Positions 1-38,858 of a DNA stretch of 60,265 bases are shown here, in pieces (position 1 is the stretch's first letter; every line of letters starts with the position of its first letter). Position numbers and translations under genes: made by a program. The stretch lies in contig JBEKBM010000019.1 of assembly GCA_050015395.1 (NCBI GenBank), positions 1-60,265 of the forward strand, written 5' to 3'. A model generated the notes under the pieces. It was not told the DNA's origin. It did no database searches and saw only the letters and a program-made list of their open reading frames with translations. Source of the DNA: Candidatus Bathyarchaeia archaeon (GTDB lineage Archaea; Thermoproteota; Bathyarchaeia; Bathyarchaeales; Bathycorpusculaceae).

Positions 1-141
1 CCCATTTAACGTCGGTCATGGCGCTGGTCAGACACCAAACCAATGGTACAATCGGGCGTAACCCCAGACTGCTCACCAAATAGTTCAGCGAACGAACTAT
101 AAAAATTTTAATTGTGCACACCCCTCGACTAACTAGTAAAT

Positions 142-228
142 TGGCGCCGGGGAAGGGATTCGAACCCGTGCGGGCACAGTGGTCCACTGGCTGGCTTGCC
201 CACTTTTGTGCAATTTTTGAATCTCGAG
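142..228 (-). pseudogene. 3' half of a tRNA-Ser(CGA)-like gene with putative intron; 5' half not found
   Basis: Minus strand reads CTCGAGA (anticodon loop, CGA), ~30 nt insert, GCCAG, long variable arm, GGGTTCGAATCCC, CCCCGGC-G-CCA; no matching 5' acceptor or D-arm upstream; T-stem has a mismatch. Confidence 0.7.
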
Positions 229-701
229 ATCAACGGGTTAACCATTTTGCCCCTTGATGTTGCAATAAAATCGTCGCGTCAGCGGTGTAAAAACGTTTTT
301 CTAGTCCAAACCACCCCATTCTGAAAGTTCACAACCGCGGAAAGCCTCAAGCCTTCCAGTGGGAATCCCAGAATCTAGGTAACCGCGAACCCACCCACCC
401 GCCGAGAAACCCCATCGTGCCCATAACTGACGATGCTGTCAACATGGTGTCATCATGGAAAGTCGCAATCCGCCCATCCGAAAGTCGCATCCAACCAAGC
501 CCTTCAAACCCCAAACCAAAAAGGCAACAAGAAATACAAACGCCCAGGGCGGAAAGTCTCAACTTTCCCGTAGCAAAAGTCTCAACTAAAAAAACACAAA
601 AACCCAAAGAACTCAAAAACGCTTCATTTTCGAAAGCACTTTTTTAGCTGAAAAGCGAAAAGGTATAAGAATGCGTATGTTTCTTTTATGCAAAGCTGGT
701 A

Positions 702-8778: not shown

Positions 8779-9241
8779 AATGCTTTTTTAGTAGCTTAGT
8801 ATTATTTTGATTTTTCCTATTTTAGCGGAAATATTCACTTTCTTTTTAAGCAATCTGAACCATGAGCACGAGCCCCAAGTGAACGCATATGAAAAAGAAA
8901 ACAGCGCTATTAGCCACGCCGAAAAGTGCAAAACTGCTTAAAATTGTTGGAATGCCTTTGCAAACAAAAATTACCTGTTTTGGAATCAACGTTGGGGTCT
9001 TCTTGCGAAACGTTGACTAGATTTATGTCAAATGGCTAACTATGAATCGGTTAAATTGCCGCATGCTGATTAATTATGGAGTAAATTTAATGAAAAAACT
9101 GTTATGAACTAAACAGCGCAAAGCATCAAACGACCCCTCTTTCTTTTTATATTTATCTTGAATGCAAAGTCCATCTATCCGTTTTTGCCGCAACCCCCCC
9201 GCACAAGCTTTATATGCAAAATCGCTAACAAAGAGAGGTTA

Positions 9242-9272
9242 TTGAGCGAGAGCACTTACGCTTTTCGTTCAA
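9242..9272 (+). promoter_or_regulatory. Conserved 5'-leader hairpin, copy 1 (TATA box TTTATAT at 9209-9215)
   Basis: TTGAGCGAGAGC-ACTTAC-GCTTTTCGTTCAA; homologous to 13394-13424. Confidence 0.75.
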
Positions 9273-9297
9273 ATAAAATTATAGGAAAAGAAAAAAC

Positions 9298-11940
9298 ATG
9301 AAATTTGCTAAAAACAAAACAACAATTTGCGCAATTACTATAATTACGATATTAGCTCTTAGTAGCTTCGCAGTTCTAGTACCAAAAGTTAACGCACAAG
9401 CAGCTGCAGGCAAACTAGATGTTCCAACTTGGTGCTTCATTAATGCTTTCCCAAGTCCCGTTGGCGTTGGTCAAACAATCAGCCTCTTTGCTTGGCTTGA
9501 CATTCAACCACCAACCGCGATGGGAGCATACGGTGACCGATGGTATAATCTAACTATAATCGAAACGAAGCCAGACGGCACCACAGTAACATTGGGACCC
9601 TACACGTCAGACCCCGTTGGCACGATTTTCACAACCGTCATTCCAGCAACAACAGGTAATTATACATTCAAATTTGTCTTCCCTGGACAACTTCTCGCAG
9701 GCAATAACTTAGAGCCAGTAGTGCAGCCGGTTGCTGCCTACCCTCAGATAGGCAACTATTACGAGCCCGCAACATCCACCCCAGTTACAGTCAACGTGCA
9801 ATCGACGCCTATTCCAACCGCACCAGCTTATCCGTTACCAACTCAATACTGGAGCAATCCGGTCAGTCAAAGTGGACACCAGAACTGGGCATATATAACT
9901 GGCGATTGGCTAGCTACCGGCGTGGCTGGCTCAAAAATCAATGACTACACACAACCGCCAACAACCGCCCATATCGCATGGACTATACCCTTAACTTACG
10001 GAGGCGTTGCAGGTCTGCCATCGGCTATTAGTACTGGTGGTGACAACTACTACACAGGTCTTACATATGAAGGACTGTTCTCCAATCCAATAATCATGGG
10101 TGGGCAACTCTACTACAACATCGGTAGGCCACCACAGTACGGCTTCGCTGACGTCAATTTACAGACTGGACAACAAGTCTGGTATCAAAACGGTACAGGT
10201 CCCCAGCAATCATTTATGGGCTATGGTTATCCGCAGCTTACTATGGGGCAGGAACTTGACTACGAATCACCTAATCAACACGGTACAGTCGAGTACCTCT
10301 GGAGCGTTTACACAGCCGCCAACGGATCGAACGTCTGGGCAATGTATGACCCAGTCACCGGCAATTGGATATGCAATCTCTGGAATGTGCCAGCAAGCTC
10401 AGAAATGTTCGGGGCCTCAATGATGATTACTGACCCAAGCGGTAGTTTCATAATCTACACCCCCGACTTCGCCAACAAAATCTTCAGCGTCTGGAACAGC
10501 ACCGCCACAATCCAAGATACATATCCTTTTATGGGAATGCAATATGGCAACTCATCAAACAGTTACTGGGAGTGGAGACCTCCAACGGGTGCACAAGTAG
10601 ACGCAACAGTCGGCACAACTAATTACGCTATCACTGGTAATCTACCTGCAAATGCAGCATCCGCAACACTTATGGGCATTGATACAGCAGACCAACTCGC
10701 CGTATACAGCACAGCCCCAGCAATGATAGGTATGGCAAGTTATCCTACACCCGATAGCTACACACAATTCGCCATCAGCACCAACCCCGCTACCATAGGC
10801 CAAGTGACGTGGTCTCGTACATACCCATGGCCAACAGGTAACGTAACCCTCGAATATGGTTGTCCCATAAGCAACGGCGTATTTACATTATTCGAAAAAG
10901 AACCAAGGCTTTGGATGGGCTTTAGCGCAACCACAGGAGCACAAATCTGGACATCAACAACACCTGAAGTTAGTAACCATCTATACTTGCAAGGCTACTC
11001 AGCATACACCTATGACGGCGTGTTCTACAGCTCCGACTCAATTGGCGAAGGCGGAAGCGTATACGCCTACAACGTTACGACTGGAGCGCTATTGTGGAGC
11101 TACACAGCGCCTTCTATGGGCTATACTGGCTACTGGGACAACATACCCACAACCGTCGGAGCTTTCGCATCAGGCAATATATACTGGAGTGGATCCGAAC
11201 ACAGCCCAGGACCAAACCTTGAACCCGGATTCATGTTAGGCGATATGAATGCAACAACCGGAGTACCAATCTGGAACATCACCTTCTGGGATGAAGGTAC
11301 TGGAACTGGCAATATCGGTGCAATTGCAGACGGCTACCTGGTAGCCTTAAACAGTTACGACATGCAAATCTACAGCTTCGGCATGGGACCAACCCAGACA
11401 ACAGTAGGAACAGATTGGAGTAATAGGGGACAAAACTTAGTGATACAAGGCTCAGTACTGGACATTTCTGCTGGCACTACGCAGTCTAATATAGCGGCGC
11501 GCTTTCCACAAGGTGTTGCAGCCGTTTCTGACGCAAGCATGACCCCATACATGGAATACGTGTACATGCAGAATCCTATCCCAGCAAACACTACCGGTGT
11601 ACTAGTTCAAGTAACCCTTATTGACCCGAACGGCAACACCATTAACCTACCCACTGTCACAAGCGACGCGAGCGGCCACTACGGCCTTGATTATAAGGTT
11701 CCTAATGTACCAGGAACGTACACAGCCATCGCTACATTCAGCGGAACTGACGCTTACTGGCCATCATACTCAGAAACCACCTTCCAAGTTGACCCCGCAC
11801 CTGCAGCTACTCCCGCACCAACAGCTACTCCCACATCTGTCGCTAACATGTACTTTGTTCCGATGAGTATTGGCATAATTGTTTTAATCATCATAGTCCT
11901 CGCCGTAGTAGTACTCTCGATGCTTAGGAAGCGACCATAA
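9298..11940 (+). CDS. Large membrane-anchored PQQ-like beta-propeller surface protein, paralogue 1
   Basis: Signal peptide, Ig-like N-terminus (P.PVGVGQT, KPDGT..LGPYTSDPVG), YA.N.TTG..LW blades, many NxT sequons, P/T linker, C-terminal TM helix + RKRP. Confidence 0.88.
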   Translation: MKFAKNKTTICAITIITILALSSFAVLVPKVNAQAAAGKLDVPTWCFINAFPSPVGVGQTISLFAWLDIQPPTAMGAYGDRWYNLTIIETKPDGTTVTLGPYTSDPVGTIFTTVIPATTGNYTFKFVFPGQLLAGNNLEPVVQPVAAYPQIGNYYEPATSTPVTVNVQSTPIPTAPAYPLPTQYWSNPVSQSGHQNWAYITGDWLATGVAGSKINDYTQPPTTAHIAWTIPLTYGGVAGLPSAISTGGDNYYTGLTYEGLFSNPIIMGGQLYYNIGRPPQYGFADVNLQTGQQVWYQNGTGPQQSFMGYGYPQLTMGQELDYESPNQHGTVEYLWSVYTAANGSNVWAMYDPVTGNWICNLWNVPASSEMFGASMMITDPSGSFIIYTPDFANKIFSVWNSTATIQDTYPFMGMQYGNSSNSYWEWRPPTGAQVDATVGTTNYAITGNLPANAASATLMGIDTADQLAVYSTAPAMIGMASYPTPDSYTQFAISTNPATIGQVTWSRTYPWPTGNVTLEYGCPISNGVFTLFEKEPRLWMGFSATTGAQIWTSTTPEVSNHLYLQGYSAYTYDGVFYSSDSIGEGGSVYAYNVTTGALLWSYTAPSMGYTGYWDNIPTTVGAFASGNIYWSGSEHSPGPNLEPGFMLGDMNATTGVPIWNITFWDEGTGTGNIGAIADGYLVALNSYDMQIYSFGMGPTQTTVGTDWSNRGQNLVIQGSVLDISAGTTQSNIAARFPQGVAAVSDASMTPYMEYVYMQNPIPANTTGVLVQVTLIDPNGNTINLPTVTSDASGHYGLDYKVPNVPGTYTAIATFSGTDAYWPSYSETTFQVDPAPAATPAPTATPTSVANMYFVPMSIGIIVLIIIVLAVVVLSMLRKRP

Positions 11941-11964
11941 AAAATGCTAAACAAAAAACATCAC

Positions 11965-12258
11965 TTTCCCCTTTTTTGGTCTTAAAAACCAATGGATAAA
12001 AGAATAAGGGCTGAGAAGGCTCTGGTTGAATTCACGATGGCGTATGTAGTTATCATCATTAGCATTTGTATTCTTTTTTCTCCTAAAAGTTGTTCCAGAG
12101 CCTCAGCAAACCCTAAATGCTCTATTGTCTTTTTTTTAGAAAATATGGCTTAGTCTTTCCAAGTGGCGCCGGGGGGGATTCGAACACCAATTTACTATTA
12201 AATGACCGCAAACAGTTTAGCTTCAAAAACTGCCCAAGGCGAAGAGCATTTTGATTTT
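11965..12258 (+). repeat. Direct repeat copy 1, including T-rich terminator and tRNA 3'-end fragment (12164-12185)
   Basis: Near-identical to 16021-16335 apart from a 19 bp indel and a few substitutions. Confidence 0.95.
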
Positions 12259-12474
12259 TCCTGTCGTTTGCTTTCTCAACAATCCACGGAGCAGTACTTA
12301 TCTCGCGACAATATATGACTCATAAGCTACAAAGGGGATGCTGAAATCAAGCAACAGGTAACAAATATCGCTGAGAAACATAACTTCGCAATGAAAGAAG
12401 AGAAAGGCCCAAATCTTTCCGCAAGTTTTATATTTGCCGTTACAATTTGGCTTCCCTATTTTTTTTGCAAAGTT

Positions 12475-13308
12475 TTATAAGGAAGTTGGCGACAAACAGC
12501 CTGCGCGCTTCGATGTTTGAGAGTCTGTCCACTGTTTTTCAAAGTATACTTTGGCTATCGCCGTTAGATGAGAGTTATTTGTCATTAAATAGGCGGCTTT
12601 AGAAAAATCGCTTGATTCCGACGTAATAATCCCGATTTTTTTCTCGTCCAAGATTACAAGTGGCACAATTGCTTGGTTAAACGAAACTCTTGCTTCAAAA
12701 AAAGGATTTATCATCGAATCTTCTAAATTGAACTGAAAGCTACTTCTTTCGGGCTTTCCTATAATCATTCTTATCTTAACTTCTTTTTTCAATGCTCCGT
12801 CTAATTCTTCCTTTGCTAACTCAAGATTTCTTTCTAAAGTAACTATGTCGATACTTGTCTTGCAATTAGAAAAATTCTCTTTTCGCCTTCTGGCGCGCGC
12901 AGATGCGTTGGGAACAAAAAAGGTTATTTCCTCTTCTGACTCAGTGCGTTTCATTTTGTTTGCTGCTTCACATCGTTCAAGCAACTGCTTTGCTGCTGCC
13001 TTAATTTTTATCTCCATGTCTGAAAATTCCTGCTGTTTCCGCTGAAGCATAATGGAAATAGCATCTGCTATTGGGATAGCTGAGTACTCATAAGGTGTCG
13101 CCACTATTTTTTCAATGATTCCAATGTCTAGTAGATCGTTAACCACTTGGTAAATGTGTTGACGTGCTAAATCTGTTCTTTTGGATAGGACTTTTATGGT
13201 CGCTCTTTCCGTCCGGGTGAGCGTGATGTAGACTCTGGCTTCAAGAGAAGAAAGCCCCATTTGTGTCAGTGCCTGCACGTCTTGGCTTGAAACCGTTAAA
13301 TCACTCAT
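12475..13308 (-). CDS. TrmB-family transcriptional regulator
   Basis: L..MGLSSLEARVYITL...IYQVVNDL...GIIEK....PYEY.A wHTH plus effector domain (VILDEKK...Y.MTNN..L..AKVYFEKQW); start taken at ATG 13308. Confidence 0.9.
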   Translation of the reverse strand: MSDLTVSSQDVQALTQMGLSSLEARVYITLTRTERATIKVLSKRTDLARQHIYQVVNDLLDIGIIEKIVATPYEYSAIPIADAISIMLQRKQQEFSDMEIKIKAAAKQLLERCEAANKMKRTESEEEITFFVPNASARARRRKENFSNCKTSIDIVTLERNLELAKEELDGALKKEVKIRMIIGKPERSSFQFNLEDSMINPFFEARVSFNQAIVPLVILDEKKIGIITSESSDFSKAAYLMTNNSHLTAIAKVYFEKQWTDSQTSKRAGCLSPTSL

Positions 13309-13335
13309 TAGAATACCTACGAAGATGATTATGCA

Positions 13336-13362
13336 TTGAACAGAACTCTGTTGTTCTTTCAA
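13336..13362. promoter_or_regulatory. Imperfect inverted repeat, candidate TrmB operator
   Basis: TTGAACAGAAC-TCTGTT-GTTCTTTCAA just upstream of TATA box TTTAAAA (13366-13372), between divergent genes. Confidence 0.5.
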
Positions 13363-13393
13363 GGATTTAAAACCTTTCATAAAGCATACTCTC

Positions 13394-13424
13394 TTGAGCG
13401 AGAGCATTTACGCTTCTTGCTCAA
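13394..13424 (+). promoter_or_regulatory. Conserved 5'-leader hairpin, copy 2
   Basis: TTGAGCGAGAGC-ATTTAC-GCTTCTTGCTCAA; differences from copy 1 keep pairing (G-U versus G-C). Confidence 0.75.
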
Positions 13425-13450
13425 TGCAAAATAAAATTGAGGAAAGAAAA

Positions 13451-15997
13451 ATGCAAATCAAAAAAACCAAAACACTTTCTAGTATCGCTTTGATTCTACT
13501 GTTAACTTTTTCTGTACTTATGGTAAGCATGCCGACCTCTAAAGCTCAAGGTATGCCTCTCACTAACATTCCTACCTACGCCTTCCTTACTGTTGAACCT
13601 AACCCTGTAGGGGTCAGTCAGACAGTGTCGGTTGGTTTTTGGCTTGATAAGGTCCCGCCAACAGCAGCGGGTCCATCTGGTGCTAGGTGGCAGGGTTTAA
13701 AAGTAACAATCACAAAGCCCGACGGAACCACCCAAATCATGGGGCCGTACACTTCCGATCCGGTCGGAATGTCAAACTTCAATTACGTGCCCGACGCGGT
13801 TGGCAACTATACTTTGCAGTGTAGCTTCCCTGGACAAAATGTAACTGGCATTGGGGCGGTCATTCCGGTGCCGATTAACGACTATTATGAGCCAAGCACA
13901 AGCTCGGTAGTAACACTTAGTGTACAGCAAAGCCCAATAGCGTCTTATCCGACGACTCCGCTTCCAACTGGTTACTGGCAGAGCCCCATTGACGCACAGA
14001 ACAGAGGATGGTACACGATATCAGGAAATTGGCTGGCACAAGGGACAGGAGGCCTGTTATTTGGACAGAGGGCGTACAATTCTACTGGGAATTTCAATGC
14101 TTACACCACAGCGCCTAATTCGGCTCACATAGAGTGGACGAAGTCAATAGCTATCGGCGGTCTCATGGGAGGCGAGTTTGGGGGTGGTGGCACTAGCGCC
14201 TACAATTGGGGGAACACATACACACCGATGTTTGTACCACCGGTAATACTGAATGGAGTACTCTACTACAATTCTCCTGTCGAGCCCAGAGAAGGATTCT
14301 ATGCCGTAGACCTACGCACCGGACAAACGCTATGGTATCAAAATAGTACTGGTCCGGTAACGATGCTTGGAGCAGTTGGCCTAAATGGTTATTATGGCTA
14401 CGCGGGTATAACACTGGGTCAAATATACAACTACATCTCACCCAACCTATATGGAGGCGACCCATACCTATGGTTTACTCAGGGCACTACATGGTACATG
14501 TATGACGCGAGCACAGGAAACTTGATACTGAGCATGGCGAACGCAACTAACCTTGGGAACCCAGAGACTCCAGGCACTGTTGTTGAGCGTCCGAACGGCG
14601 AGTTGGATGTTTATATGCTTAACGGATTCACAAACACGTTGTCTATGTGGAACTCGAGTCTGGCTATTCCAACGCTGGGAACAGAAAGCACGGCCGCTTG
14701 GTGTTGGAGGCCCCCCGTAGGAGCGACGCTTAACTGGCTAAACGGAATACAATGGACCGTAACAGCAGCCCCATATCCGGGACAAGCCATTTCTACGATT
14801 AGTTCTAATGTAATACTTGCTACTACAGGGAGCTTGTTCCTGCCGCAGAATTACCAAATGGAAATAGGTTACAGCGCAACAACAGGGCAACAGTTGTGGG
14901 TTCAAAACCGAACGACTCCTCCAGGGGCCACGTCCTTTAATCTCATGGGTCCTGCCGCTGACGGGGTCTACACTGAATTCCATGAAAGTACGATGGAATG
15001 GTACGGCTACAGCCTCGCTACAGGAGCACAAATATGGGGCCCAACTGTCCCCTACACCAGTGGTTGGGGTTTCTATGATAGCACTTCGGGTAGCGCTTAC
15101 GGCATACTTTACGCAACGGGCTACGACGGAACGGTGCACGCTTATAATATTACGTCAGGGCAGCACTTGTGGGACTGGTACGCTGGAAGCAGCGGGTACG
15201 AAACTGCCTATGGTACATGGCCTTTGTCCACTTTTGGCCCCATAACTATTGCCGACGGAAAGATCTACGTAGGCACGTGTCACGGTCTCGTTCCACCTAT
15301 GTTCAGAGGCGCACAGCTATATTGTCTCAACGCTACGACGGGAAAAGAACTATGGAGCATAGACCAATGGTGCGGAAATACTATAGCTATCGCAGACGGC
15401 TCCCTCGTAACACTCAACGGGTATGACAATCAAATATACTGCTTCGGACCGGGCCAAAGCGCCACTACAGTGACAACTTCACCTGGCATAAATACCAACA
15501 CTCAAGTATTGATAAAAGGCACCGTCACTGATCAATCGCCAGGCCAAACATGCCTAGGGATACCCGCCGCAGGCACACCCGCAATCTCAGACGCAAGCAT
15601 GACCCAATGGATGGAATACTTGTACATGCAGCAGCCAGAACCTATGAATGCAACGGGCGTTCCAGTAACGTTGACGGATATTGACCCGAACGGCAACACC
15701 TACACCATAGGCACAACCACAAGCAACATAGCAGGACAATACTCATACGCCTTCACTCCCACCGTACCCGGAACATACACAATCATTGCAACATTCGGCG
15801 GATCCAACTCGTACTACAGCTCAACAGCGCAAACTACCATGCTATGGAATACACCTGCAGCTGCTACTGCCGCACCTACAGCTACTCCGACATCTGTCGC
15901 TAACCTGTACTTTGTTCCTGCTGTCATTGCCATAATTGTTGTAATAATCATAGGCTTTGCTTTACTAGCAATCTTATCACTTAGAAAACGACCATAA
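13451..15997 (+). CDS. Large membrane-anchored PQQ-like beta-propeller surface protein, paralogue 2
   Basis: Start taken at ATG 13451 (MQIKKTK signal peptide); same architecture as 9298-11940, ending PTATPTSVANLYFVP...RKRP. Confidence 0.88.
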   Translation: MQIKKTKTLSSIALILLLTFSVLMVSMPTSKAQGMPLTNIPTYAFLTVEPNPVGVSQTVSVGFWLDKVPPTAAGPSGARWQGLKVTITKPDGTTQIMGPYTSDPVGMSNFNYVPDAVGNYTLQCSFPGQNVTGIGAVIPVPINDYYEPSTSSVVTLSVQQSPIASYPTTPLPTGYWQSPIDAQNRGWYTISGNWLAQGTGGLLFGQRAYNSTGNFNAYTTAPNSAHIEWTKSIAIGGLMGGEFGGGGTSAYNWGNTYTPMFVPPVILNGVLYYNSPVEPREGFYAVDLRTGQTLWYQNSTGPVTMLGAVGLNGYYGYAGITLGQIYNYISPNLYGGDPYLWFTQGTTWYMYDASTGNLILSMANATNLGNPETPGTVVERPNGELDVYMLNGFTNTLSMWNSSLAIPTLGTESTAAWCWRPPVGATLNWLNGIQWTVTAAPYPGQAISTISSNVILATTGSLFLPQNYQMEIGYSATTGQQLWVQNRTTPPGATSFNLMGPAADGVYTEFHESTMEWYGYSLATGAQIWGPTVPYTSGWGFYDSTSGSAYGILYATGYDGTVHAYNITSGQHLWDWYAGSSGYETAYGTWPLSTFGPITIADGKIYVGTCHGLVPPMFRGAQLYCLNATTGKELWSIDQWCGNTIAIADGSLVTLNGYDNQIYCFGPGQSATTVTTSPGINTNTQVLIKGTVTDQSPGQTCLGIPAAGTPAISDASMTQWMEYLYMQQPEPMNATGVPVTLTDIDPNGNTYTIGTTTSNIAGQYSYAFTPTVPGTYTIIATFGGSNSYYSSTAQTTMLWNTPAAATAAPTATPTSVANLYFVPAVIAIIVVIIIGFALLAILSLRKRP

Positions 15998-16020
15998 AAA
16001 CTCGCAACCCAAAAATCCAT

Positions 16021-16335
16021 TTTCCCCTTTTTTAGTCTTAAAAAGCAATGGAGAAGAGATAAGGGCTGAGAAGGCTCTGGTTGAATTCACGATGGCGTAT
16101 GTAGTTATCATCATTAGCATTTGTATTCTTTTTTCTCCTAAAAGTTGTTCCAGAGCCTCAGCAAACCCTAAATGCTCTAAGATGTCACCAATCACTCGTT
16201 GTCTTTTTTTTAGAAAACATGGCTTAGTCTTTCCAAGTGACGCCGGGAAGGGGGATTCGAACACCAATTTACTATTAAATGACCGCAAACAGTTTAGCTT
16301 CAAAAACTGCCCAAGGCGAAGAGCATTTTGATTTT
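16021..16335 (+). repeat. Direct repeat copy 2 with tRNA 3'-end fragment (16238-16262)
   Basis: Near-identical to 11965-12258. Confidence 0.95.
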
Positions 16336-16425
16336 CTTTTTGCCATTTGGTTGATCCTCAATCAGCATTCCGCTTCTCCTGTTTAGCTGGAATAGCATCT
16401 CTCTCTTGGGCTAACAAGGTTAGCA

Positions 16426-16563
16426 TTAGAATTTTTCGAGATATTCTTCAAACTGCTTTTTATCCCTCAAACACTGAGGGTAAACACAACTGAACGGGAG
16501 ATCTTTGGTGGGGCATAACTCATTGTATTTTTTTGCCGTCTGAGCCTGGGGCGTTTTTTCCAG
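16426..16563 (-). pseudogene. Degraded copy of the 3' end of the Cys-rich gene at 17489-17827
   Basis: Translates KYNELCPTKDLPFSCVYPQCLRDKKQFEEYLEKF* versus intact KYNESCATKDLPFSCVCPQCLMDRKQFEQCLEKF*; upstream part frameshifted or lost. Confidence 0.9.
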
Positions 16564-16654
16564 CATAATAAAGGTAATTCATTCCAGAAATGCACTAGCA
16601 TTTTCAAAGGGTTTCTTTTGTTTTAGCCGTTGGTATTAACTTGTCCTTATTCCG

Positions 16655-17089
16655 TTATAGGTCCTTCGGATGTACTCTTTGGATTAATTCTGTTTTGTCG
16701 TAATCTTTGTCTTCGCTGATTATTTTTTGTATCCCAAGTTCAAGCATGCTGGCAACATTTATTGCGTCTTTTGGGTGTTTGAGCGGAGTAATCTCCATGA
16801 TTTCCAAGGCGTGTTCAAAAACAACTCTGCTCATCTCAACCTTCTTGATCTTGCTCATTTTCATATAGTCGCGAGCCACGCGGATGGCAGTAGATGCGGA
16901 AGTGAGCTTGGACAAAATAAAAAGGGTCTCCTCTAGGGTTTCCAAGCTTGTTGCCGCATTTATTTCTCCCTTTGCAGCTTTGCCTATGACGTTTAGGCAT
17001 TCTTTGTGGTATGCTGCATTTTTGTCTGCGGCATGGATGAGCGTTGTGGAATCCAAGAAGTAAGTAGGTTTAGTTGTAATCAGATTCAA
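16655..17089 (-). CDS. vapC: VapC-like PIN-domain toxin
   Basis: YFLDSTTLI, TLEE, DAINVASML..GI.KIISEDKDYD. Confidence 0.92.
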   Translation of the reverse strand: MNLITTKPTYFLDSTTLIHAADKNAAYHKECLNVIGKAAKGEINAATSLETLEETLFILSKLTSASTAIRVARDYMKMSKIKKVEMSRVVFEHALEIMEITPLKHPKDAINVASMLELGIQKIISEDKDYDKTELIQRVHPKDL

Positions 17090-17101
17090 GCGTAAACCAG
17101 C

Positions 17102-17368
17102 TTATGTTTCGAGAAAATGCTTTAGTCGTTCTTCAGCAGTTTTCTTTTTCAGTTCTTCTGCGGATAACCCTATTGATATTTCTTTTGACAGTTCAGTTAG
17201 ATCCTGCAGTGGATCTTCAGAAACCTTGTGCAGGTGTATACTTATTTTATTGCCTACGGCAACTATTACGGCTTCGTCGCCTGTGTTCACTCCGTAGACT
17301 TCACGTAGTTCTTTTGGCAATACGATTCGCCCCTGCCTGCCAACTCTTACCTTGAAAAATGATGCCAA
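17102..17368 (-). CDS. vapB: AbrB/MazE/SpoVT-type antitoxin
   Basis: KVRVGRQGRIVLPKELREVYGV..GDE; directly upstream of the PIN gene; AGTGGCA repeats at 17399 and 17417 flank the TATA box. Confidence 0.9.
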   Translation of the reverse strand: MASFFKVRVGRQGRIVLPKELREVYGVNTGDEAVIVAVGNKISIHLHKVSEDPLQDLTELSKEISIGLSAEELKKKTAEERLKHFLET

Positions 17369-17488
17369 AGTAACATCTCACTGTCATTATTAAAACTAAG
17401 TGGCATATTTAAAATTAGTGGCACTCTGCTGTCCTTCAGTAAGCCGTCGTTTGCTACATATGGATGCGTAAAAACAGTCAAACAAACA

Positions 17489-17827
17489 TTAGAATTTCTC
17501 TAGACACTGTTCAAACTGCTTTCTGTCCATTAAACATTGAGGGCAAACACAACTGAATGGCAGATCTTTGGTGGCGCATGACTCGTTATATTTGCAGTCT
17601 GAGCATGGGAAGTCTTTTCCACAGCGCGTACAGCTTTGGAGAAATACGACTTCACTGTTTAAAATGCCGGCGATTGTGTCCATAAGCTTTTCAATATTAT
17701 TGCAGCTTTTAATGGAAAAGACGCCTTGCTCACGATTATAGTTCAAGCCTAAATGTATCAAGAGAATAAATTTTTCTTTTTCAACCCTCGGAAGCTTGAA
17801 CGCCTTCTTATTTAAAACTGCCACCAT
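17489..17827 (-). CDS. Cys-rich (Zn-binding) hypothetical protein downstream of rfcL
   Basis: CxxC, CxxC, C, CxCxxC motifs; GGAGG-like RBS. Confidence 0.8.
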   Translation of the reverse strand: MVAVLNKKAFKLPRVEKEKFILLIHLGLNYNREQGVFSIKSCNNIEKLMDTIAGILNSEVVFLQSCTRCGKDFPCSDCKYNESCATKDLPFSCVCPQCLMDRKQFEQCLEKF

Positions 17828-38770: not shown

Positions 38771-38858
38771 GCGGAGGTCGCCCAGCATGGCCAAAGGCGT
38801 AGGACTGAGGCTCCTATCCCGCAGGGGTTCGTGGGTTCAAATCCCACCCTCCGCACCA
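38771..38858 (+). tRNA. tRNA-Leu(GAG), CCA encoded
   Basis: GCGGAGG acceptor, TAGGA-CTGAGGC-TCCTA anticodon arm, long variable arm, GGTTCAAATCC, CCTCCGC-A-CCA. Confidence 0.97.

Follow-up and report, generated by a model that had tools for sequence, protein, structure and literature searches.

The window analysed here, the whole 60,265-nucleotide contig JBEKBM010000019.1 of a Candidatus Bathyarchaeia archaeon (assembly GCA_050015395.1), carries two short motifs, at 12164-12185 and 16238-16262, in the 3' flanks of two paralogous surface-protein genes. They resemble the 3' end of a serine tRNA and are probably decaying relics of an attachment (att) junction, copied when a surface-protein gene was duplicated together with its flank. 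Each relic would consist of a near-palindromic arm and of a copy, about 27 nt long, of the 3' end of tRNA-Ser(CGA). The window copies are not working tRNAs, they are not the ends of the duplicated unit, and their use in recombination has probably ceased. Hereafter, G000 is the genome under study (2.59 Mb, 42 contigs, 98.9% complete), the other G numbers are relatives of the genus, C numbers are contigs and the window is C19 of G000. The relatives include genomes with 78–97% identity in MCM, by which G019 is the closest, and the genus-wide pattern searches covered 61 genomes.

The original prediction listed the two motifs together with a third one, at 142-165, as tRNA-Ser 3' ends in a common orientation, and all three strings are indeed present, antisense on the plus strand. 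The gapped pattern CGCCGGGN{1,4}GGGATTCGAAC has three matches in the window, versus a mean of 0.00 in 100 dinucleotide-preserving shuffles, not one of which (0/100) contains a match. Read on the minus strand, each motif runs from a T loop through the 3' strands of the T and acceptor stems to a discriminator G and CCA, and it matches the 26–27 nt 3' end that tRNA-Ser(CGA) has in the lineage, which is GGGGTTCGAATCCCTTCCCCGGCGCCA in the relatives. This match supports the tRNA-Ser origin that had been proposed and refines the source to tRNA-Ser(CGA). The copy at 142 is identical to the last 26 nt of the relatives' tRNA-Ser(CGA) (26/26, 142-167); read by eye, the copy at 12164 shows one substitution and a 2-nt deletion, and that at 16238 two substitutions and about three indel bases. 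When the 3' end seen at 142-165 was searched in the 61 genomes, one conserved match, of the form ...GGCAAGATAGCTGGTGGGCTTCGTGCTCGCAGGGGTTCGAATCCCTTCCCCGGCGCC, was found in almost all of them. The tRNA-Ser(UGA) gene (C7:60575-60662) was considered as a source and rejected: it is 84% identical to 142-197 over 56 nt, and the relatives' tRNA-Ser(CGA) matches better.

None of the three motifs qualifies as a functional tRNA-Ser gene. ARAGORN with introns allowed and Rfam RF00005 give no tRNA call at 142-253, 12164-12189 or 16238-16266, Rfam/Infernal finds no RNA family at the motifs, and there is neither a cloverleaf call nor a 5' strand pairing with CCCCGGC at any of them; the single tRNA of the window is tRNA-Leu at 38771-38858 (found by ARAGORN, and the only one that Rfam finds at the gathering score). 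In the repeat copies, the palindrome stands where the tRNA body would be. A 5' half with the acceptor strand GCCGGGG and a CGA anticodon was not found elsewhere in G000. The motifs were therefore rejected as halves of a split or trans-spliced tRNA, for which the copies are also too numerous and too decayed. Partial, non-canonical tRNA fragments get listed as tRNA genes, according to a warning in PMC9897764. Like those prokaryotic fragments, the window motifs are 3' pieces and not functional genes; unlike the wrongly listed ones, they are not called by tRNA finders, and the native tRNA-Ser(CGA) is itself degenerate.

The arm and the core recur together across the genus. The 18-nt pattern TTTACTRGTAAAWTGGKG, searched with at most one mismatch, has 104 matches in 30 of the 61 genomes, compared with 3 for the reversed control, and G000:C19:12185-12202 fits it with one mismatch. 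Of 31 copies of this composite inspected by eye, 27 are followed by a T-arm-like hairpin with a 7-nt loop, after which an acceptor-like end mostly comes. A palindrome-free search with the 17-nt 3' end of tRNA-Ser(GGA) returned 69 rows, of which 56 are genuine tRNA genes; the other 13 are additional copies, and 12 of these have the palindrome immediately upstream.

Ten genomes (G004, G009, G012, G013, G016, G020, G052, G062, G063 and G076) have a composite that shares the strand of tRNA-Ser(GGA) and lies 0.4–10 kb downstream of it, and G016 has six composites within 51 kb. For tRNA-Ser(CGA), the composite is downstream and on the same strand in 12 of the 13 same-contig pairs, the exception being G044. 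Integration at the 3' end of a tRNA gene, with several inserts stacked, is expected to give such a layout; a partner copy in direct orientation with an intact tRNA at one end exists for the composite family in relatives. As judged from sequence, the palindrome plus core of the relatives is an attR-type junction pattern. According to PMC6563490, the target of archaeal elements is mostly the 3'-distal part of a tRNA gene, and arrays are formed by elements with tyrosine recombinases.

Some of these sites have integrases as neighbours. In G013 (C19), an intact tRNA-Ser(CGA) is followed 40 nt on by a convergent tyrosine recombinase (PF00589, 72 bits) of at least 292 aa, truncated where the contig stops. 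G045 has integrase pseudogenes about 40–150 nt beyond each of two composites; they share 50% identity with a G000 fragment at C12:77502. Since the G013 gene and the G045 pseudogenes adjoin tRNA-Ser(CGA) sites, the lineage has integrases that sit at this tRNA. The original prediction had called for a search for an intact tRNA-Ser with an adjacent recombinase: there is none beside the window copies, and the relatives offer the G013 gene and the G045 pseudogenes.

Two further observations concern integrases and arms. A second arm (...GA.ATC.CC.CTTTC.CTGG) precedes the tRNA-Ser(CGA) core in about 10 rows, e.g., G043:C15:453457, G011:C2:287466 and G059:C22:6206, which points to a second element family on the same target; it is the P' side of this family (CAACTTACTTTTGGACAAA) that lies beside the G013 and G045 integrases. 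Another candidate integrase in G000, C7:58918-60018, lies 557 nt upstream of the 5' end of tRNA-Ser(UGA) and scores 17.5 bits against PF00589, below the cut-off; it is on the wrong side of the tRNA, no flanking repeat was found, and it was not used. Intact integrase candidates of G000 lie at C8:3339, C4:125385 and C34:14165.

The two window copies belong to the 3' flanks of surface-protein gene 1 (9298-11940, plus strand), which has PQQ-like beta-propeller and Ig-like domains and a C-terminal membrane anchor, and of its paralogue, gene 2 (13394-15997, plus strand). They sit between convergent genes, and a gene for a TrmB-family regulator (12475-13407, minus strand) lies between the two repeat units. 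Read on the minus strand, the order is module A, the near-palindrome ATTTAATAGTAAAT, the tRNA-like core, and modules C, D and E with the gene end. In copy 1, module A is at 12204-12258 (minus strand) and holds GGGCAGTTTTTGAAGCTA, like the sequence following composites in G016; the near-palindrome ATTTACTATTAAAT, the conserved arm beside the core, is at 12190-12203, the decayed core at 12164-12189 (minus strand TGGTGTTCGAATCCCCCCCGGCGCCA), module C at 12125-12163 (minus strand CTTGGAAAGACTAAGCC..TTTTCTAAAAAAAAGAC), and module D, an inverted-repeat element with arms GCTGAGAAGGCTCTGG and CCAGAGCCTCAGC, at 12004-12124. In copy 2, the palindrome (16267-16280) and module A together span 16267-16335 (minus strand), the decayed core is at 16238-16266 (minus strand TGGTGTTCGAATCCCCCTTCCCGGCGTCA), module C at 16180-16237 (minus strand) and module D at 16059-16179. 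Module C, which always begins immediately 3' of the CCA of a tRNA-like end, has in copy 2 an extra stretch of about 19–22 nt that is absent from copy 1 and present in C8 and in most relatives.

The stretches 11923-12258 and 15980-16335, a duplicated flank of about 340 nt, are 89% identical over 359 aligned columns, with two blocks of 100% identity, one of 121 nt (12004-12124 = 16059-16179) and one of 86 nt (12173-12258 = 16250-16335). The two cores are direct repeats 4.07 kb apart, with no intact tRNA adjoining. Because the similarity runs past them on both sides (about 75 nt on one side, through the gene on the other), they are not the ends of the repeated units, and the idea that they bound these units must be given up in favour of the duplication of one inherited site. 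The core copies differ by substitutions and C-run indels, and no stable hairpin is found at the copy 1 composite (z +1.53 versus shuffles), where the T-arm hairpin is lost. For these reasons, the window cores look decayed.

The same locus in relatives holds a variable number of surface-protein cassettes: none in G019, one in G016 (between the same flanking genes), two in G000 and three in G004 (C35). Module A, the palindrome and the core are at the same place in all three relatives, the core being truncated in G019, and modules C, D and E are likewise reported at the orthologous locus (G016, G004:C35, G019). G004:C35:9324-9386 keeps a perfect 27-nt core, with no mismatch, and the tandem unit of G004 runs 200–290 nt further, beyond module A. 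G019 has a different 1.3-kb insert at the locus and becomes similar to the window again from 16252, within core copy 2. Since the position is the same in G016, G004 and G019, the site is older than the species split, and the presence of one inherited site in the relatives indicates that the window copies were duplicated rather than separately inserted. The motif is thus kept in other copies, as the original prediction required, both at these same-locus sites and among the genus-wide composites.

We infer the following history. An element with a tyrosine integrase would have recombined with a tRNA 3' end, the tRNA being rebuilt at one end of the insert while the other end kept a partial copy of the tRNA 3' end, preceded by element DNA. 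One such junction would have reached the convergent spacer downstream of the surface-protein gene before the lineages of G000, G004, G016 and G019 separated. In G000, this junction would have been copied during the duplication of the gene and its 3' flank, after which gene conversion probably homogenised the two copies block by block. The tRNA-Ser(CGA) gene native to this genome is probably an occupied integration site as well.

Several points weigh against this history. The window copies stand 12 and 16 kb from the tRNA-Ser(CGA) locus, upstream of it and on the same strand, whereas the composites of the canonical arrays in relatives are downstream of the tRNA. The blocks of modules A and D are 100% identical when the adjoining coding sequence is only 70–92% identical, and this identity could reflect selection on the flank instead of gene conversion. 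Conservation of the palindrome goes far beyond what neutral decay would leave, in part because the search was based on it. Neither an intact tRNA-Ser nor an integrase lies beside the window copies; as the original prediction stated, the window has no integrase, none of the six PF00589 matches of G000 being on this contig. Among the 90 open reading frames (ORFs) within 1.5 kb of 30 composites of relatives, none matches an integrase family (E ≤ 1e-5), and one is a DDE transposase. Most composites, then, have ordinary or accessory genes and no recombinase around them, which fits old scars but also a dispersed small repeat or a cassette system that works in trans.

The phenomenon belongs to a known kind, the att junctions of tRNA-targeting integrative elements. 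As in known attL/attR junctions of archaeal and bacterial genomic islands, the composites of relatives include a direct repeat of the tRNA 3' end, downstream and on the same strand, and some of the relatives' copies also have an integrase convergent with the tRNA and several elements stacked per tRNA. Unlike attL/attR islands, most segments here are 1–5 kb long and lack an integrase, a conserved 14-nt near-palindrome always abuts the core, and the window copies are ectopic, away from the tRNA, inside a duplicated flank and decayed. Full-text searches listed no publication that deals with att sites or with cassette arrays anchored at tRNA genes in Bathyarchaeia; as far as they show, the phenomenon is undescribed in this lineage. 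The finding is ordinary in itself: that integrating elements leave partial copies of tRNA 3' ends is well known, and one old scar, once duplicated, accounts for the window copies.

The alternative that survives best, although unlikely, is that the composites are recombination sites in use, on which a tyrosine recombinase encoded elsewhere acts in trans. Integrase-free cassettes would then stand in arrays anchored at tRNA-Ser genes, the composites resembling the attC sites of integrons, an arrangement that is equally unlikely, and the 4-kb stretch with surface-protein gene 2 and the TrmB regulator would, with the same low probability, be one cassette. Integrons have an IntI-type integrase, an attI site at the head of the array and attC sites with R''/L''/L'/R' sites. 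The likeness lies in arrays of short cassettes, a repeated site-like element with inverted repeats, a uniform orientation and accessory cargo; unlike attC, the composite is a copy of a tRNA 3' end and its arrays have a tRNA gene as their anchor, and no PF00589 match, hence no IntI-type integrase, is found beside the arrays examined.

The relatives provide most of the evidence for such cassettes. The segments between successive composites are 0.7–33 kb long, mostly 1–5 kb; the annotated ones, of about 0.7–5 kb, are integrase-free and carry one to few accessory genes (MFS and MarR, or PIN, in G013; a PAS kinase in G016; Imm5-like and Pirin, or SnoaL, in G010; a Zn transporter, a PAS kinase and a hybrid-cluster protein in G045). 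The interval from 16237 to 12190 has the form core, cargo, palindrome-plus-core, the cassette number varies from 0 to 3 across G019, G016, G000 and G004, and the breakpoint between G019 and G000 falls in the core, at 16252. In G004 (C46), a cassette of the same kind, with modules E, D and C, a TrmB gene and a surface-protein gene, lies against the CCA of an intact tRNA-Ala; this tRNA-Ala and a degenerate tRNA-Ala 3' fragment delimit the island in which the cassette stands, and G000 (C13) has both boundaries with different cargo.

Against a system in use, the G000 and G004 units overshoot the core on both sides, as unequal crossing-over gives and site-specific recombination does not, the window cores are decayed and no mobile form has been seen. 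No integrase match was obtained among 60 ORFs in four arrays, nor among eight ORFs beside the G013 and G016 arrays. No cassette is seen at two different composites with identical ends, and tandem duplication accounts for at least one array, that of G045, where two copies have identical 45-nt upstream flanks. Of the two possibilities raised in the original prediction, the scar is thus upheld by the att-type family at tRNA-Ser genes, and the mobilisation of the cassettes by an integrase encoded elsewhere is not upheld; the latter is improbable and less likely than a scar.

Metagenomes were also examined. The 24 sequencing runs listed, from 22 studies of peat and wetland metagenomes, each hold at least 94% of the sampled words of 9000-17500 (24/24). 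The junctions inside the motif that the original prediction proposed to look for did not appear: none was found at either repeat motif in the contigs of 4 runs, the check being made on contigs and not on reads, so that rare excision forms are invisible and the check settles neither presence nor absence. One X4 contig joins 11943 to 16018, with 16 foreign letters between them and a short side of 25 letters; it is probably a paralogue or another strain.

It is doubtful, a little more so than the use of the sites in trans, that cassettes in this genus recombine at a unit of about 45–60 bp, made of the palindrome, a tRNA-Ser 3' end copy and, often, another palindrome half. If they did, integrase-free cassettes of one to few genes would gather downstream of tRNA-Ser(GGA) and tRNA-Ser(CGA), and at ectopic copies like those of the window. 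Their cargo would be defence genes, toxins, sensors, transporters and surface proteins, which a recombinase from elsewhere would shuffle, and the whole would be an integron-like platform in which a tRNA mimic replaces attC. The small integrase-free segments make this mechanism of cassette exchange worth testing.

Less probable again is that the composite is a cis-element of the host, either a protein-binding palindrome with a tRNA-like minihelix or a terminator or insulator of convergent genes, that has spread as a small repeat; that the likeness to tRNA-Ser is a by-product, as this would imply, is just as improbable. Composites do occupy spacers next to unrelated housekeeping genes (dnaJ, citrate synthase, L3, NADH dehydrogenase), the window copies sit between convergent genes, and the palindrome is well kept, with a second half often following the CCA. 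However, the core is identical to real 3' ends of tRNA-Ser(GGA) and tRNA-Ser(CGA), the copies cluster downstream of these very genes, whose strand they share, and some of them adjoin an integrase gene or pseudogene. Moreover, the copy 1 composite has no fold above shuffles, and the acceptor part decays freely.

Chance likeness to a tRNA end, arising from a G+C-rich run beside TTCGAA, is extremely improbable: the motifs are short (22–25 nt) and the two repeat copies have indels, but none of the shuffles reproduces the three window matches, the reversed control gives 3 matches against 104 in the genus, and G004:C35 has a perfect 27-nt core.

The third motif, at 142-165, has a different status. 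On the minus strand, 142-330 is the tRNA-Ser(CGA) locus of the relatives in an alignment with six of them; five of the six orthologous loci are called tRNA-Ser(cga) by ARAGORN, with an intron of 35–39 nt (38 nt in G013), and that of G019 is miscalled. Because the same locus aligns in the six relatives, 142-165 is, on alignment grounds, the tail of the native gene and not the orphan att fragment that had been proposed. The locus spans 142-253 (minus strand), with the 3' exon at 191-142, the intron at about 221-192 and the anticodon loop CTCGAGA at 228-222. Three parts are conserved in G000: the region upstream (GGAAA..GTTTTTACAC), the intron's end (GGCAAG..AGC) and the 26 nt at the 3' terminus. 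Its 5' exon has degenerated: no acceptor strand GCCGGGG stands at the aligned place, the D stem is altered, and the 5' strand of the anticodon stem reads TTGAT, which makes pairing with GCCAG impossible. The T stem has one C/T mismatch, and an Infernal tRNA search at 142-253 gives nothing even at E ≤ 10. Elsewhere in the assembly, the tRNA-Ser(CGA) 3' end recurs only as a fragment at C18:3473-3535. In G000, the native tRNA-Ser(CGA) gene is thus probably a pseudogene; if it is dead, UCG codons would need tRNA-Ser(UGA).

Directly 3' of the tRNA tail come ATTTACTAGT and then the end of an insertion sequence (IS), which ends the contig. The stretch 128-141 reads ATTTACTAGTTAGT on the minus strand and is a palindrome half cut by the IS. 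Its counterpart is CCATTTTACCATTT, found after tRNA-Ser(CGA) in G045, and occupied tRNA-Ser(GGA) genes in G013 and G016 are followed by the palindrome CCATTTTACCAGTT. The IS end (1-127, minus strand) contains the C-terminal part of a DDE-type transposase frame and the terminal repeat ...TTGTGCACACCCCTCG, and it is 98–100% identical to C1:173276-173402, C31:26868-26994 and C26:45318-45444. The terminal repeat CGAGGGGTGTGCA(C/T)AATT is common to at least eight ends, and the transposase-like frame reaches the end in C26. This element thus has the marks of an insertion sequence: several copies, terminal repeats, a transposase frame and a target duplication.

The opposite end of the same IS family is at C18:1-141, and the flanks of C19 and C18 both have TTAGT, which is likely the target duplication of the IS. 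As opposite IS ends stand at the two contig starts and TTAGT is common to both, C19 and C18 are probably adjacent and joined through one IS. If so, the composites C18:203 and C18:3496 would be downstream of tRNA-Ser(CGA), on the same strand. A PycTM-like ORF (Pycsar effector) lies between these two composites. Upstream of tRNA-Ser(CGA), the motif TTGCGACTTTC (GAAAGTCGCA on the other strand) is repeated in G000 (417-616), G016 and G045.

Other tRNA fragments were noticed in G000. Many more orphan 3' fragments, of Ser-GCT, Leu-like, Arg-CCT, Pro-CGG and Ala types, are found, e.g., at C2:138835, C3:84625/87700, C16:43208, C22:22589, C25:43826, C26:39375, C39:12155 and C13:~770; several lie 1.7–2.8 kb downstream of the matching intact tRNA, and G000 appears rich in integration scars. 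The locus C30:6980-7100 is labelled tRNA-Ser(cga) by ARAGORN; the acceptor stem, the discriminator A and the loop CTCAAGA point to an intron-containing tRNA-Leu(CAA). In the 'tRNA-Ser(cga), 1014-nt intron' called at C22:17380-18481, a 3' fragment of this Leu-type tRNA has probably been paired with unrelated sequence.

Module D is a genus-wide repeat of about 120 nt that follows surface-protein genes; its arms are conserved, its middle is variable, and its fold is no more stable than those of shuffles (z −0.91). Elements of this type also occur in G000 at C10:84568-84691, C32:6565-6690 and C8:~96950-97090, and after the TrmB gene in G004:C46; a 281-nt query containing module D has matches in 24 of 41 genomes, with at most 20 per genome, most of which cover only D. 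Two coding interpretations of the flank were rejected: a decayed transposase N-terminus (minus-strand ORF 15977-16303), which has no Pfam match, indels not in threes and a variable middle, and a small ORF in module A, which is frameshifted in G004 and lacks a start codon in copy 1. Beyond the second repeat, a PIN-MazE toxin–antitoxin pair (16655-17089, 17102-17368) lies between 107-nt direct repeats (16424-16530 and 17487-17593, 84% identical); G004, G016 and G019 have a single copy of the 107-nt repeat, without the pair. The genes of the window include MCM, GINS, RFC and ribosomal protein L44e, an archaeal set.

In a poorly studied lineage, the motifs are annotation landmarks that point to a broken tRNA-Ser(CGA) gene and to a hot spot with 0–3 surface-protein cassettes. 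The composite is a searchable signature for tRNA-Ser integration sites and for the islands that they carry, in a genus of uncultured peat and soil archaea.

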